64,000 nt of DNA, taken from a virus. Lineage: Duplodnaviria > Caudoviricetes. A program made the translations under genes and the position numbers. The notes under the pieces are model-generated. The model was not told the DNA's origin. It did not search any database and saw only the letters and a program-made list of their open reading frames with translations. The DNA is taken from positions 1-64,000 of the IMG/VR virus record IMGVR_UViG_2706795703_000001, one strand, 5' to 3'. This document shows, one piece after another, positions 2,559 through 6,947 of this stretch (its first letter is position 1; the number at the start of each line of letters is the position of its first letter).

Positions 2559-3152
2559 ATGAAGCCTCGGATGATTTACCTGGTGGGCCAGCCCGGCGCG
2601 GGCAAGTCCACGCTGATGGCTGCGCTGACCAAGGGCCTGGTGCGCAGCCCCTGGCATGAGCACACCGTGCCCCACGATCAGCTGGTCGACCGCGTGACCG
2701 GCGAGACGGTGGCGGCTGAGCTGGGCGTGCAGCGCGGGGCCTTCAGCGGCACCGACGCGCTGGCCAGCAGCATCATCGACAAGGCCGTTCCGTGGATTCA
2801 GTCGCGCCCCTACGACCTGGTGCTGGCCGAGGGCGCGCGGCTGGCCAATCGGCGCTTCATCGACGCCGCCCTGGACGCGGGCTACGCCGTCACCATCGGC
2901 CTTCTCGACCATGACCAGGCCGACACCTGGCGCAAGCGCCGCAGCAAGGCGCTGGGACGCGAGCAGTCCCCGTCATGGGTCAAGGGTCGGCTGACCGCCA
3001 GCCGCAACCTGGCCGCCCACTACCCCGGCGCGCTGGTCGTCGCCGGGTCGGTCATCCCGGCTGAGCCGGGCAAGGCCATCGTGCTGGCCGGGCACCCCGA
3101 CGAACTCGAGCCGATCTTGGCGGCGGTCATGGCCCAGGACGTCGATGGCTAA
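2559..3152 (+). CDS. P-loop nucleotide/DNA kinase (adenylate-kinase-like fold)
   Basis: Walker A GQPGAGKST at the N-terminus, GTDAL and LAEGARL motifs. TATCAT 6 nt before ATG. Overlaps the terminase start. Confidence 0.8.
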   Translation: MKPRMIYLVGQPGAGKSTLMAALTKGLVRSPWHEHTVPHDQLVDRVTGETVAAELGVQRGAFSGTDALASSIIDKAVPWIQSRPYDLVLAEGARLANRRFIDAALDAGYAVTIGLLDHDQADTWRKRRSKALGREQSPSWVKGRLTASRNLAAHYPGALVVAGSVIPAEPGKAIVLAGHPDELEPILAAVMAQDVDG

Positions 3153-5796
3153 GAAGCCGGAGCTGGAGTTCCCCGACCATGGCAGCGGTGACCCCGCCGT
3201 AGCGGTCTGGCAGTCCGACGGCACGTTTGACACCCAGCGCGCCGAGCAGATATTCGAGGAGACGAAGGACTGGCCGCCGGAGCAGCGCGCGGCCATGCTG
3301 CGGTCGCTGCGCGCGGCTGAGACCCGGGCGACGGTGCGCACCAAGTACCGCCACCCCGCCGAAATGGCGGCAGCGGTGACGCCGGGCTACCGCATCACCC
3401 CCGCGCTGGCGATGATCAGCAACAGCATTGAGCGCGTGCTGAACAGCCACCGGAAAATCAACCTGTCGGTGTCCATGCCGCCGCAGGAGGGCAAGTCGTC
3501 GCTCTGCTCGGTGTGGGCCCCGCTGCGCGCGCTTCAGCTGAACCCCAACCGCCGCATCATCCTGGCCACCTACGCCCAGCCGCTGGCCGACATGCACTCC
3601 CGCAGCGCCCGCGACGTCATCAACGCCCACGGGGCGGGGCTGGTCGACCCGCTGACGGGGCTGACCGTGGAAGACAAGATCGGGCTACGCCTGGCCCAGG
3701 GCGCGAACAAGATCAGCTTCTGGGGCGTAGAGGGTGGTGCTGGGGGACTGCTGGCCGCAGGCATCGGCGCGACCATCACCGGTATGCCCGCCGACCTGCT
3801 GATCATTGATGACCCGTTCAAGAACATGATGGAGGCCGACAGCGCCACCCACCGCAACAATGTGGAGCTGTGGTTCTCGTCGGTCGCGCTGACCCGCCTG
3901 GCCCCCGATGCGTCGATAATCCTCATTCAGTGCATGACCGGCGACACCCCCGTGCTGCGACCTGACGGCACCGAGACGCCGCTTGCCGACATCCGTCCCG
4001 GTGACGAGATTGCCACCTATGAGGACGGCGCGCTCAGCACGGCCACCGTCAAGAACTGGGCCAGTCAAGGCTATGATCGTGTGAGTAAACTAGTATTTGC
4101 ATCAGGACGACAAGTGCGCGCTAACGCTCGTCACCCGTTCCTGGTGGCTCACGACGACGGGACAACCGAGTGGATCAGGCTGGCCGACCTCAAACCGGGA
4201 CATCGCGTGATTGCGACATCGACGGGTGCGAACGACCCCACCACGCCCGAGGACGGTGCAAGTCGCATTGGGCTGCATTGCGGCGCACCGAGCGAGGATT
4301 ACGGGTTCACCCCGAGGGACACTGGGGTAAATGGACCGGCGTCATCTGCTCTGCTGACGGCTGCGACCAGCCCGCCGTCATCGAGCCGGGGCTGTGCCAC
4401 AGCCACTATGACAAGCACAGATGGGCGTCTGGAATCCGGTACCCCTCGCACAGTGGGCGACCTCGCCGCAACGTGCTGCTGCGCAGGCGATACGGCATCG
4501 ACCACGACGAGTACGACCGCTTGCTCGCCGCCCAAGACGGGCGGTGCGCTATCTGCCGCCTTACGGCTGACGAGGCGCGTATGCCAGCGCATTGGAACGG
4601 CTATTTCTGCGTGGATCACGACGAGACGACCGGCGTGCGCGAACTGCTTTGCAACGACTGCAATGTCGGCCTCGGAAGGTTTCACCACGACCCCGCACGG
4701 CTCCGCGCTGCTGCCGACTATCTCGACCGACACATTGCTGCACATCGAACCTGACGGTATTGCCGAGGTGTTCGACATCGAGGTCGAGCGAACCGAGAAC
4801 TTCATCGCCAACGGGCTGGTCAGCCACAATACGAGGTGGCACCCCGAAGACTTGGCGGGCAAGGTACTGGAGGGCGAGCGGCTGCTGGACCGCGAGGAGC
4901 GCACCTGGCGGCACCTGAACATCCCCGCCATCGCGGAGGAGGGCATACCCGACGCCCTGGGCCGCCCGTACGGCGAGCCCATGGTGTCGGCACGTGACAC
5001 CCCCGAGGCCAAGCGGAACTTCGCGCAGACCCGCAAGCAGGTGGGCGAGCGCACGTGGTACGCGCTTTACCAGGGCAGCCCCCGTAACCCAGCTGGCGGC
5101 ATTTTCCAGCGCGCCTGGTTCGACCCCCGCCTACCCCAGCCGCCCAGCTACCCCGTGGCCGCCGTCGTCGGCATCGACCCGGCCGACAGCGGCGAAGGGG
5201 ATGACGCGGGCGTGGTCGGCGGCAGCCTGTACCACGACGGCAAGCAGTCCAAGGTGGCGCTGACCCATGATCGCTCCGGCAAGTTCACCAGCGACCAGTG
5301 GGCCCGCCAGGGCGTCATCCTGGCCCTGGAAATCGGGGCCCGCGTGGTCGCGGTGGAGGGCTACACCGCCGCCAAGACGTACACCCGCGTGGTGCGCCAG
5401 GCATACACCGCCATCCACAACGAGGCCATTGCGGCGCTGAACGCCGGGGCTGAGCTGACCGCCGTGCAGAAGCGCGCGCTGCCCGACATCCCGCCGTTCA
5501 TCATCAAGCCCTGGCGCGGTGCCAGCAAGGCCGACGCGGTGGCGCGGTCGGGCGGGCTGAGCCAGTCGCTGGAGACAGGGCGGTGCCGGACGGTGGAGGG
5601 CGCGCTGGCGGTGTTCGAGAACCAGGCGTGCGACTGGCAGCCCGGTCAGCACCAGCCTGACCGCGTGGCCGCGTCCATCATTGTCCACGACACCCTGATG
5701 GAAATGGCGGGCCAGCAGATGCACGTGGCCGCTCCGGTGCAGCGCAAAACTGCCCCGCCACCTGCATGGATGCGCAGAAGCATTGGGAAAGGTTGA
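3145..5796 (+). CDS. terL: Terminase large subunit, interrupted by an intein
   Basis: MPPQEGKS Walker A, LIIDDP Walker B, IQ|TRWH coupling motif split by the intein, C-terminal nuclease VGIDPA and DRVAA. Confidence 0.93.
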   Translation: MAKKPELEFPDHGSGDPAVAVWQSDGTFDTQRAEQIFEETKDWPPEQRAAMLRSLRAAETRATVRTKYRHPAEMAAAVTPGYRITPALAMISNSIERVLNSHRKINLSVSMPPQEGKSSLCSVWAPLRALQLNPNRRIILATYAQPLADMHSRSARDVINAHGAGLVDPLTGLTVEDKIGLRLAQGANKISFWGVEGGAGGLLAAGIGATITGMPADLLIIDDPFKNMMEADSATHRNNVELWFSSVALTRLAPDASIILIQCMTGDTPVLRPDGTETPLADIRPGDEIATYEDGALSTATVKNWASQGYDRVSKLVFASGRQVRANARHPFLVAHDDGTTEWIRLADLKPGHRVIATSTGANDPTTPEDGASRIGLHCGAPSEDYGFTPRDTGVNGPASSALLTAATSPPSSSRGCATATMTSTDGRLESGTPRTVGDLAATCCCAGDTASTTTSTTACSPPKTGGALSAALRLTRRVCQRIGTAISAWITTRRPACANCFATTAMSASEGFTTTPHGSALLPTISTDTLLHIEPDGIAEVFDIEVERTENFIANGLVSHNTRWHPEDLAGKVLEGERLLDREERTWRHLNIPAIAEEGIPDALGRPYGEPMVSARDTPEAKRNFAQTRKQVGERTWYALYQGSPRNPAGGIFQRAWFDPRLPQPPSYPVAAVVGIDPADSGEGDDAGVVGGSLYHDGKQSKVALTHDRSGKFTSDQWARQGVILALEIGARVVAVEGYTAAKTYTRVVRQAYTAIHNEAIAALNAGAELTAVQKRALPDIPPFIIKPWRGASKADAVARSGGLSQSLETGRCRTVEGALAVFENQACDWQPGQHQPDRVAASIIVHDTLMEMAGQQMHVAAPVQRKTAPPPAWMRRSIGKG
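3931..4830 (+). mobile_element. Intein (300 aa) in terminase
   Basis: Begins CMTGDTPV (Cys1), block B ANARHPF, ends FDIEVERTENFIANGLVSHN, followed by Thr(+1). Removal restores IILIQ-TRWHPEDL. Confidence 0.93.
4170..4754 (+). CDS. Endonuclease VII-family homing endonuclease encoded in the -1 frame inside the intein
   Basis: YGIDHDEYDRLLAAQDGRCAIC...VDHD..G.VRELLCNDCNVGLG...LRAAADYL is the EndoVII pattern. Two N-terminal Cx4C-x8/9-Cx2H motifs. GTG 4170 is the only conventional start before the first motif. Confidence 0.85.
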   Translation: MDQAGRPQTGTSRDCDIDGCERPHHARGRCKSHWAALRRTERGLRVHPEGHWGKWTGVICSADGCDQPAVIEPGLCHSHYDKHRWASGIRYPSHSGRPRRNVLLRRRYGIDHDEYDRLLAAQDGRCAICRLTADEARMPAHWNGYFCVDHDETTGVRELLCNDCNVGLGRFHHDPARLRAAADYLDRHIAAHRT

Positions 5797-5821
5797 CTTA
5801 CCCGACTTAGGCGGGTAACTT
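5793..5821 (+). promoter_or_regulatory. Near-palindromic promoter/operator, copy 1
   Basis: TTGACT-TACCCGACTTAGGCGGG-TAACTT (-35, 17 bp, -10) with TTACCCG-N7-CGGGTAA inverted repeat. Confidence 0.8.
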
Positions 5822-5887
5822 CATGGCTACCGGACAAACAGCAGCAAGGCGGGACCGTCCCGCCTGCTTTACCCGAAAGGGGCTCAC

Positions 5888-6019
5888 ATGTCCGGCTACT
5901 TTTACGAGGTCGATGGCCAGCGGTTTGACCAGCGCGTGGAGGCCATGGCCTACTGCGACATCTGGGGCTACCACTACGGGGCCATCCAGTGGGTCGACCC
6001 CGAGGCACCCTGGGCCTGA
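5888..6019 (+). CDS. 43-aa hypothetical protein not in the ORF track
   Basis: MSGYFYEVDGQRFDQRVEAMAYCDIWGYHYGAIQWVDPEAPWA; GAAAGG RBS, preceded by promoter copy 1 and the leader hairpin. Confidence 0.7.
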   Translation: MSGYFYEVDGQRFDQRVEAMAYCDIWGYHYGAIQWVDPEAPWA

Positions 6020-6036: not shown

Positions 6037-6363
6037 CTAGTCCGGCGGGTCAGCCTCAAAGCAGACCAACACCATGCCGGGGCTGATGTAGTCGGTAAAC
6101 CACGCCTGACCGGCCGCCTGGGCGGCGTCCAGCCCGCCGACGAAGACACAGCGCATACGGTCCAGCAGATCGCTGGCGTTGCGATCTGCTACGAACCCCT
6201 CCAGGTGGTCCCAGATGGCCTGGCCCCATGCCACGGGGTCGGCCTGCAATTCGCTCAGCAGCACTGGTATCTCGACGCGGAACTTGCGGGCGCGCATGAC
6301 CTTGATGGCCACGCGGTCAGACCGACGGGCCTGCTGGTAGGCGAGCTTCGCTAGGTCGGCCAT
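6037..6363 (-). CDS. Hypothetical protein
   Basis: Start overlaps the resolvase stop (TGATG); fills the gap. Confidence 0.6.
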   Translation of the reverse strand: MADLAKLAYQQARRSDRVAIKVMRARKFRVEIPVLLSELQADPVAWGQAIWDHLEGFVADRNASDLLDRMRCVFVGGLDAAQAAGQAWFTDYISPGMVLVCFEADPPD

Positions 6364-6947
6364 CAGTCCTCCAGGGCGGCGACGACGTCATTGCGGTACT
6401 TGGTGACCGGCAGGATGGGCAGGCCCATCCGCTGGCAGACCGCTGCCCCCACGATAAGCGCGTCGGCGTCGTTGTTGTCGATGATGTCGACCACCCCGTT
6501 GAACAGGCGGCTGGTGGCCAGCAGCACTGCATCCTTGCTGGCGTTGCCGTTGCCGGTGGCGAACTTGGCGCGCTGGCTGGTGGCCACAATGGTCAGCGGC
6601 ACGTCGTACTTCTCGCATAACTCGACCACCCGGCCGAACACCCAGGGCAGCACCCAGACGCCTGACCCCTTGGCCCCGTAGGCGAGACCTTCCATGCCTA
6701 CCGCGTCGGGCTTCTCGTCGTCCCGAAAACACCCTTCTATCTGGTCGATCAGGTCGTTGACCCGCCTGGCCATGGCCCGTTTCGACTTGTCTTTCGTCGG
6801 TTTGGGCGCGCTGACGATGGCGGTGTCAGCGGTGAAGGCCACGGGCTCATCGGGCTGGCGGGGCGGGTTACTGGGCGGCCAGCTGGCCAGGTCGATACGG
6901 GCCAGGCCGGTGCCGGTCAGGCTGGTGTCGATCCCAAGTACGCGCAT
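6363..6947 (-). CDS. ruvC: RuvC-like Holliday junction resolvase
   Basis: MRVLGIDTSLTGTG, VGMEGL, KFATGNGNASKDAV, NNDADAL acidic catalytic pattern. Confidence 0.88.
   Translation of the reverse strand: MRVLGIDTSLTGTGLARIDLASWPPSNPPRQPDEPVAFTADTAIVSAPKPTKDKSKRAMARRVNDLIDQIEGCFRDDEKPDAVGMEGLAYGAKGSGVWVLPWVFGRVVELCEKYDVPLTIVATSQRAKFATGNGNASKDAVLLATSRLFNGVVDIIDNNDADALIVGAAVCQRMGLPILPVTKYRNDVVAALED

Follow-up and report, generated by a model that had tools for sequence, protein, structure and literature searches.

Background

Inteins that carry a homing endonuclease outside the intein's own reading frame have recently been described in actinobacteriophages under the name 'OOF ENDO VII', their homing endonuclease being Endonuclease VII (Endo VII)-like and lying in reading frame 3 (Gosselin, Arsenault and Gogarten, bioRxiv 10.1101/2025.01.02.630785). 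Table S1 of that preprint contains 27 entries of this type, among them Phlyer, Pipefish, Chandler, Vivi2, and Nordenberg, and its authors report that the in-frame middle is unstructured and that the predicted fold is Endo VII-like. Here we analyse an intein of this kind in terL, the gene for the large terminase subunit, in a virus of the Caudoviricetes (Duplodnaviria; IMG/VR record IMGVR_UViG_2706795703_000001); by the window we mean the whole stretch of DNA analysed, positions 1 to 64,000 of that record. The supplementary alignment of the preprint holds this very intein, at 3931-4830 in both AlanGrant and Vincenzo, and since the window coordinates equal those of the preprint phages, the window begins at genome base 1. 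Its architecture—an open reading frame (ORF) on the same strand but in another frame, lying between the splicing blocks while the host frame stays open—is identical to that of the OOF ENDO VII class, with no difference in kind. An earlier, sequence-only reading of this DNA had questioned the novelty of the layout, and the doubt was warranted: both the architecture and this intein are already known, and the discovery belongs to the 2025 preprint. The main text of the preprint does not use the terms start codon, ribosome, promoter, or synonymous, and 'purifying' occurs once, in passing; a nuclease start within a tryptophan codon, frame-by-frame ratios of nonsynonymous to synonymous substitution rates (dN/dS), a lost histidine, and a patch of A/T-ending codons appear to be modest additions beyond it.

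The insertion site and the intein family of the window are also those of TerL6-f, reported from cluster B3/B4 phages (Kelley et al. 2016, mBio, PMC5050341). In the portion of that paper that bears on TerL6-f, no endonuclease is described, and the cleavage assays covered LAGLIDADG inteins alone, all at different sites. The paper reports rapid splicing of the Chandler gp6 TerL6-f intein in a reporter that places the intein between maltose-binding protein and green fluorescent protein. The DNA of Chandler gp6 is 77.5% identical to the splicing halves of the window's intein, and it contains the same nested ORF.

Among nucleases, F-CphI is a protein with Endo VII motifs that is a proven homing endonuclease, and the DHHRN signature was defined with it (Fang et al. 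2018, PMC6083498). F-CphI and the window's nuclease share a core of the form Cys-x2-4-Cys ... DH-H ... R ... Cys-x2-Cys-Asn, but the latter lacks the second histidine (DHDE). F-CphI is moreover a free-standing gene beside an intron-containing psbA, whereas the window's nuclease is nested in an intein and has two extra N-terminal zinc-knuckle motifs. The best matches in both sequence and structure, for nuclease residues ~113-187, are T4 endonuclease VII (gp49) and the restriction enzyme Hpy99I; the T4 enzyme is a Holliday-junction resolvase with a C-terminal dimerisation domain, which is unmatched in the window's nuclease. More distant parallels are the Synechocystis DnaX intein, with its antisense homing-endonuclease ORF, and mobE in Aeh1 nrdA (Gibb and Edgell 2007), both cited in bioRxiv 10.1101/2025.01.02.630785. 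Like the window, each has a separate endonuclease gene sheltered in a self-removing or tolerated insertion. The mobE gene reportedly divides its host gene into two ORFs. The window differs from both in that its nuclease lies on the same strand in a shifted frame, so that the host frame must stay open through the nuclease.

We consider it very probable that the locus is a bipartite selfish element in an essential gene—a class-1 intein in terL together with an independently initiated, out-of-frame gene for an Endo VII-type nuclease. The intein would be translated within TerL and would excise itself, restoring a 583-residue terminase. The Endo VII/'DHHRN' gene, of the free-standing type, would occupy the slot usually taken by an in-frame endonuclease domain, one base out of step, and internal initiation at GTG 4170, behind a weak Shine-Dalgarno (SD) sequence, would produce a separate 194-residue nuclease outside the spliced-out intein. 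If it behaves as other homing endonucleases do, this nuclease would cut intein-free terL at IILIQ|TRWH in mixed infections, and repair would copy the whole element. The anatomy, the selection regime, and the conservation of the start are shown by the present analysis, and the splicing of a relative by published work; we infer the initiation site used, the cleavage activity, and the target, homing at IILIQ|TRWH being the natural inference.

Table 1. Positions of the terL intein, the nested nuclease gene, and associated features in the window, with dN/dS by segment (gap-free set: the window and its three closest relatives; pN/pS, proportions of nonsynonymous to synonymous differences; pLDDT, predicted local distance difference test)
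Feature	Position	Strand	Details
terL (large terminase subunit) precursor ORF	3145-5796	+	883 aa; 583 aa post-splicing; PHROG terminase large subunit, 5e-91
Class-1 intein, 300 aa (Cys1 ... His-Asn, Thr+1)	3931-4830	+	Pfam PF14890 Intein_splicing, 3e-13; boundaries from comparison with Fortunato
N-terminal splicing (Hint) half, intein residues 1-100	3931-4230	+	AlphaFold2 pLDDT 83-95, beta strands
Ten consecutive A/T-ending rare codons	4083-4112	+	AGT AAA CTA GTA TTT GCA TCA GGA CGA CAA; inside N-terminal splicing domain
Weak Shine-Dalgarno-like GGGA	4159-4162	+	7 nt before nuclease GTG
Nested homing-endonuclease-type gene, -1 frame, 194 aa	4170-4754	+	GTG start, TGA stop; Pfam Endonuclease_7, 3.4e-17
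First zinc-knuckle-like motif, Cys15-x4-Cys20-x9-Cys30-x2-His33	4212-4268	+	Extra copy; pN/pS 0.11-0.13
Intein-frame reading of nuclease gene: 157-residue T/S/A/C/R-rich linker	4231-4701	+	Stop-free; pLDDT 34-47, no secondary structure
Second zinc-knuckle-like motif, Cys60-x4-Cys65-x10-Cys76-x2-His79	4347-4406	+	Common to all relatives; pN/pS 0.19-0.23
Endonuclease VII (beta-beta-alpha-metal) catalytic core, nuclease residues 104-186	4479-4727	+	Pfam match; pLDDT 90-98
Active-site motif DHDE, Asp149 His150 Asp151 Glu152	4614-4625	+	Glu152 (4623-4625) replaces second His of DHDH
C-terminal splicing half, intein residues 258-300	4702-4830	+	AlphaFold2 pLDDT 86-96
dN/dS, N-terminal splicing part	3931-4169		Intein frame 0.10-0.14; nuclease frame >3 (gap-free set)
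dN/dS, first 45 nt of overlap			Intein frame 0.11-0.18; nuclease frame 1.5 or more (against the window)
dN/dS, nuclease body	4215-4751		Nuclease frame 0.08-0.09; intein frame 1.8-2.7 (gap-free set)
dN/dS, after nuclease stop	4755-4830		Intein frame 0.03-0.18; nuclease frame unconstrained, 0.9-1.2 where measurable
RuvC-like Holliday junction resolvase	6363-6947	-	PHROG 159, 1.2e-45; no Pfam match at 1e-3

A terL intein with a disordered middle

The TerL precursor stands in the ORF list as a single frame with no stop throughout. Its DNA is 84-85% identical to that of Fortunato, Cooper, Nigel, and ~370 other cluster-B phages, and the host is a cluster-B (Coopervirus-like) mycobacteriophage. About 370 cluster-B terL genes lack the central 900 nt and read IILIQ|TRWH at the junction, as does Fortunato, the intein-free relative used for comparison; in DNA, the intein-free gene (Fortunato or Cooper) runs ...ATCCTCATTCAG|ACCCGCTGGCAC... 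across the site. The intein corresponds to TerL residues 263-562, with boundaries IILIQ|CMTGDT...GLVSHN|TRWH, and its insertion site is the ATPase C-motif, which is TerL6-f of Kelley et al. (2016). The end residues of a class-1 intein are all present—Cys1 (CMTGDT), the His-Asn pair of ...VSHN, and Thr+1 (TRWH)—in agreement with the complete splicing motifs that the sequence-only reading had claimed, and the Pfam match covers intein residues 13-300; the sequence also matches solved mini-inteins. That reading had further described the middle of the intein as low-complexity T/S/A/C/R text with no stop, which holds for all 157 residues of the stretch, modelled with very low confidence in an uninterrupted terL ORF. 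Between the well-modelled Hint halves, these residues are predicted to be a disordered linker, unconstrained except for stop avoidance. The first ~50 nt of the C-terminal splicing half overlap the C-terminal helix of the nuclease. The intein presumably splices, terL being essential.

An Endonuclease VII-type gene in the -1 frame

The claim that the -1 frame encodes a clear Endonuclease VII with two N-terminal Cys/His motifs likewise stands: the Pfam match is strong (Table 1), and two Cys-x4-Cys...Cys-x2-His motifs are seen. This frame (equivalently, +2) is open from 4125, following an upstream stop at 4122-4124. The product matches PHROG endonuclease VII families at 2e-24, while its N-terminal part matches PHROG families labelled HNH endonuclease. 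The first zinc-knuckle-like motif is missing in most relatives and is otherwise present in locus L014 and in the window's three closest relatives (L015, L016, and L017); the second is invariant at C60, C65, C76, and H79 in the alignment of homologues. Also invariant, or nearly so, are the four zinc cysteines of the core (C126, C129, C161, and C164), and the nuclease retains D149, H150, R157, and N165, equivalent to T4 D40, H41, R54, and N62.

The AlphaFold2 model of the nuclease has a pLDDT of 84 overall and 90-98 in the core, and its top structural matches are T4 endonuclease VII and Hpy99I. Foldseek gave a probability of 1.00 to 1e7l, 2qnf, and 1en7, with modest E-values (2e-3), and of 0.99 to 3fc3 (root-mean-square deviation 3.0 over 65 columns). 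As a gene of its own, out of frame within an intact intein, the nuclease would be synthesised independently of splicing, as had been proposed from the sequence.

Two frames on one stretch of DNA

When the nuclease protein was held fixed and its codons were redrawn from this phage's own usage, random synonymous recoding gave 3.4 expected stops in the terL frame and a probability of 0.003 that this frame would be open; the third frame of the nuclease ORF contains 5 stops. The hazard lies in leucine and valine codons that end in TG and precede a codon starting with A, and such pairs are written with GTC or CTT/CTC in the window, as they are in all the relatives checked. The codons picked out in the sequence-only reading are correct in every detail: Val-Ile is written GTC-ATC on both occasions, and the Leu-Thr pair at 4560 is CTT-ACG. 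The terL frame is kept stop-free through codon choice.

Selection was measured chiefly on a gap-free set formed by the window, L015, L016, and L017 (~85% nucleotide identity), each with a 300-residue intein and a 194-residue nuclease. The constrained frame switches twice along the element, from the intein frame to the nuclease frame and back (Table 1). Over the whole nuclease ORF, dN/dS (omega) is 0.09-0.12, and substitutions at nuclease codon positions 3 : 1 : 2 stand at about 58 : 19 : 12; more distant pairs gave an omega of 0.19-0.46 in the nuclease frame versus 1.0-3.2 in the intein frame. Within the nuclease, the catalytic core (residues 104-176) is constrained, with pN/pS of 0.08-0.11, and relaxation is seen where the protein overlaps structured intein, namely in its first 13 residues and its last helix (177-194, pN/pS 0.4-0.7). 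These patterns indicate that the nuclease frame is real and maintained by purifying selection; such selection on the -1 frame of homologues, the absence of which the earlier reading had named as a refutation, is present at an omega of about 0.1-0.35.

The same reading held that about 500 nt must stay open in two frames. The stretch is indeed open in both, but it is constrained for both proteins over only ~45-60 nt per end. Overprinting is here mostly time-sharing, with only these ends serving two folded proteins: the splicing halves are constrained in the terL frame only and the nuclease body in the -1 frame only, the terL frame there doing no more than avoiding stops.

Probable start of the nested gene

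Fifty intein copies (13 first loci and 37 IMG/VR loci) were surveyed for the start of the nuclease, and an ATG or GTG stands at the same position in all 50; the IMG/VR copies have 31 ATG and 6 GTG starts. The GTG of the window is composed of the last base of the Glu80 codon and the TG of the conserved Trp81 codon, and from the upstream stop up to the first zinc motif there is no other start codon. The weak GGGA that had been noted 7 nt upstream is present, and in most copies the ~10 nt ahead of the start include a run that is purine/G-rich or resembles GGAG, contributed by Asp/Glu/Gly codons; this SD-like run is weak or absent in a few copies, such as that of Affeca. A scan of positions 3000-6000 for sigma-70 consensus promoters gave no match near the nuclease. 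Judging from these sequence features, independent internal initiation at GTG 4170 is the most likely route to the nuclease.

A lost histidine in the active site

Of 121 aligned sequences (120 homologues and the window), 119 have the DH-H pattern of the active site. Within the window's clade, the window and L017 have DHDE, and L015 and L016 have DHDA; another intein copy, L036, has DHCY and also lacks the histidine. The position of Glu152 corresponds to His43 of T4 endonuclease VII. An H43T change in the T4 enzyme abolishes cleavage and leaves DNA binding, and His43 is conserved in 'most' family members, not all (PMC6083498); an H43N mutant was used for the structure of the enzyme in complex with DNA. 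The loss is older than the split of the clade lineages (synonymous divergence in the nuclease frame is about 0.6). A sequencing error as the source of DHDE was rejected, the loss being common to three independent metagenome relatives. Since pN/pS of the catalytic core stays at ~0.1 after the loss, the protein is still in use: either the second histidine is dispensable in this lineage, or the activity is altered.

A patch of A/T-ending codons

Lying 58-87 nt before the nuclease start, the ten-codon patch of Table 1 has 40% GC against 69% for the genome, and ten of ten A/T-ending codons against a background GC content of 0.87 at third codon positions corresponds to P = 1e-9. Nine of the ten codons end in A or T in both L015 and L017, and the patch recurs across the intein family, being enriched in most of 30 distinct copies, in which the Ser-Gly-Arg/Lys codons are mostly TCW GGN MGA or AAR. 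It contains TANNNT hexamers—TAAACT and TAGTAT in the window; TAGGAT, TAGAAT, or TAAAAT in others—of which none is individually significant and no single one is conserved within the window's own clade. The patch could be a candidate internal promoter, a ribosome-pause site aiding the internal start, or a residue of a local Ile/Lys/Met-rich strand. No clean control—a same-family intein without an out-of-frame nuclease, by which the patch could be linked with the nuclease—was found among the loci examined (L098, L099, and L100); the decayed copy L100 keeps the patch (9 of 10). We regard as tentative, and on balance doubtful, the combined idea that the patch (as a promoter, or as a pause leaving a gap among the ribosomes on terL in which 30S subunits could initiate the out-of-frame gene) and a histidine-lost nuclease with a changed mechanism or non-cutting role belong together, perhaps acting jointly.

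Distribution and variant copies

The same site and frame offset occur in cluster B3 phages (Phlyer, Pipefish, Chandler, and others) and in Coopervirus phi1_186018, and the layout is shared by cluster B3 and B4 mycobacteriophages, Gordonia DE1 phages (Affeca, Angelicage, Nordenberg, Vivi2, and others), five metagenome loci (L009, L014, L015, L016, and L017), and, among the best 80 nuclease loci of IMG/VR, 37. The nuclease ORF is intact and in the same frame relation in every one of the 50 intein copies, from isolates and metagenomes. The intein is patchily distributed among near-identical exteins, which, together with the purifying selection, is indirect evidence for homing. Searching proteins with the intein region gave 1010 TerL matches, and a LAGLIDADG Pfam domain was found in only 2 of the best 120, each time from a second intein. 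The in-frame 'shadow' of LLCNDCN was found by a narrow text pattern in 47 of 120, an undercount that we do not use as a figure; on inspection, it is present in most of the others.

Several variant copies were seen. Loci L098 (201-3704) and L099 (10-3354) encode TerL proteins of 1114-1167 residues, apparently with two inteins; the LAGLIDADG matches point to the upstream, second one, and the downstream CMTGDT-type intein contains an out-of-frame Endo VII ORF of 159-200 residues. In L100 (201-2219), a relative with the double zinc motif, codon 27 of the nested ORF is a stop and a deletion has removed most of the nuclease, so that the 672-residue TerL retains only a mini-intein; the GTG is still present. 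Locus L009 has, just downstream of its intein-bearing terL, a free-standing Endonuclease VII gene on the minus strand (1974-2423; Pfam 4.7e-21), which occupies the place of other small genes and the RuvC-like resolvase in cluster-B phages; nested nucleases could derive from it or have given rise to it.

Alternative explanations

Three other accounts of the -1 ORF were weighed against an independently initiated nuclease gene. Compensating frameshift errors in sequencing, which the sequence-only reading had named as a possible refutation, would mask an ordinary in-frame endonuclease domain. Nothing was found in favour of this, and conservation across many independent sequences makes this next to impossible, given that the same offset, start, and stop before the C-terminal splicing blocks recur in independent isolates and metagenome assemblies, an identical protein is found on two contigs, and an identical intein stands in two separately named phage entries. 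That the ORF is a decaying remnant, open by chance in GC-rich DNA, has in its favour that long alternative-frame ORFs are common in GC-rich phage DNA and that a decayed derivative exists in L100, with its premature stop and large deletion; such a pseudogene is highly improbable in view of the Pfam E-value, a dN/dS of about 0.1 with substitutions concentrated at codon position 3, an ORF intact in every intein copy, and a confidently predicted fold. The third account, a second expression route proposed beside GTG 4170 in the earlier reading, is programmed -1 ribosomal frameshifting close to where the N-terminal splicing domain ends, which would yield a fusion of N-extein, N-intein, and nuclease. 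The -1 frame is open for 45 nt ahead of GTG 4170, and the SD sequence of the window's clade is weak, as this route would allow; but no X_XXY_YYZ heptamer or homopolymer run lies in the permitted interval of the window, no slippery site is common to the eight lineages (only Affeca has one, downstream of its start), RNA folding around the site is ordinary (z = 0.73), and the 15 -1-frame codons before the start are unconserved. The combination that defines programmed -1 frameshifting, a conserved slippery heptamer with a downstream stimulatory structure, was found neither in the window nor among the lineages. The fusion would be unable to splice and would use up TerL precursor to no purpose, and expression without a shift is explained by the conserved ATG/GTG, which is accompanied in most copies by an SD-like site. 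Because the start is conserved, most copies have an SD-like site, and no slippery site is shared, independent initiation is the likelier route, and we hold frameshifting to be very unlikely; of the two routes first proposed, GTG 4170 is the one favoured.

Some observations do count against a separately initiated homing nuclease. This clade has a weak SD sequence (GGGA) and a GTG start, and initiation would face competition from ribosomes translating terL; the conservation of the start is in part a by-product of the tryptophan codon, whose TG cannot vary, leaving freedom only at the wobble base before it. Some of the codon alignments were guided by the nuclease protein, which biases them toward that frame, a bias from which the gap-free set is free. 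The loss of the His43 equivalent from the window's nuclease and from those of its three closest relatives makes cleavage activity uncertain in the clade. It is conceivable, if less than probable, that in this clade (the window and L015-L017) the nuclease is no longer a double-strand-cutting homing enzyme and is retained for some other function, such as site-specific DNA binding, nicking, or one of benefit to phage or intein. All four clade members have DHDE or DHDA, with the site itself varying between Glu and Ala, against near-universal retention elsewhere in the alignment; the T4 mutants at His43 behave as described above, losing cleavage and not binding in one case and serving for a DNA complex in the other; and the protein is clearly used, with strong constraint on the core and pN/pS of 0.11-0.23 in the zinc motifs. 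On the other side, the nuclease keeps Asp149, His150 (equivalent to the general base), Arg157, and Asn165 as well as its four zinc cysteines, His43 is not universal in the family, the intein copy L036 has also dispensed with it, and an active enzyme would likewise show strong constraint on its catalytic core.

Genomic context and annotation

A P-loop nucleotide kinase gene (2559-3152; Pfam Ploopntkinase3, 1.6e-72) overlaps the terL start by 8 nt and is named 'adenylate kinase' or 'terminase small subunit' in deposited records. A role for the Endo VII as the phage's junction resolvase was ruled out, as a RuvC-like gene is present (Table 1) and intein-free relatives lack the Endo VII. No second copy of the nuclease was found elsewhere in the window. 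The terL locus is annotated only as 'terminase' in the phage records examined, and metagenome gene callers either skipped the nuclease or split terL.

Implications

The main value of the window lies in confirmation and in details of the start, the active-site residue, and the codon patch that are useful for experiments. The nested nuclease gene is overlooked by gene callers. That the clade's nuclease has stayed under strong selection after losing a canonical histidine may imply a changed catalytic mechanism or a new, non-cutting role. The element offers a clean natural case in which two reading frames share DNA by turns, rather than under true double constraint, and it very probably represents a selfish gene hiding inside another selfish element in an essential gene, where the cost to the host would be only a disordered linker.

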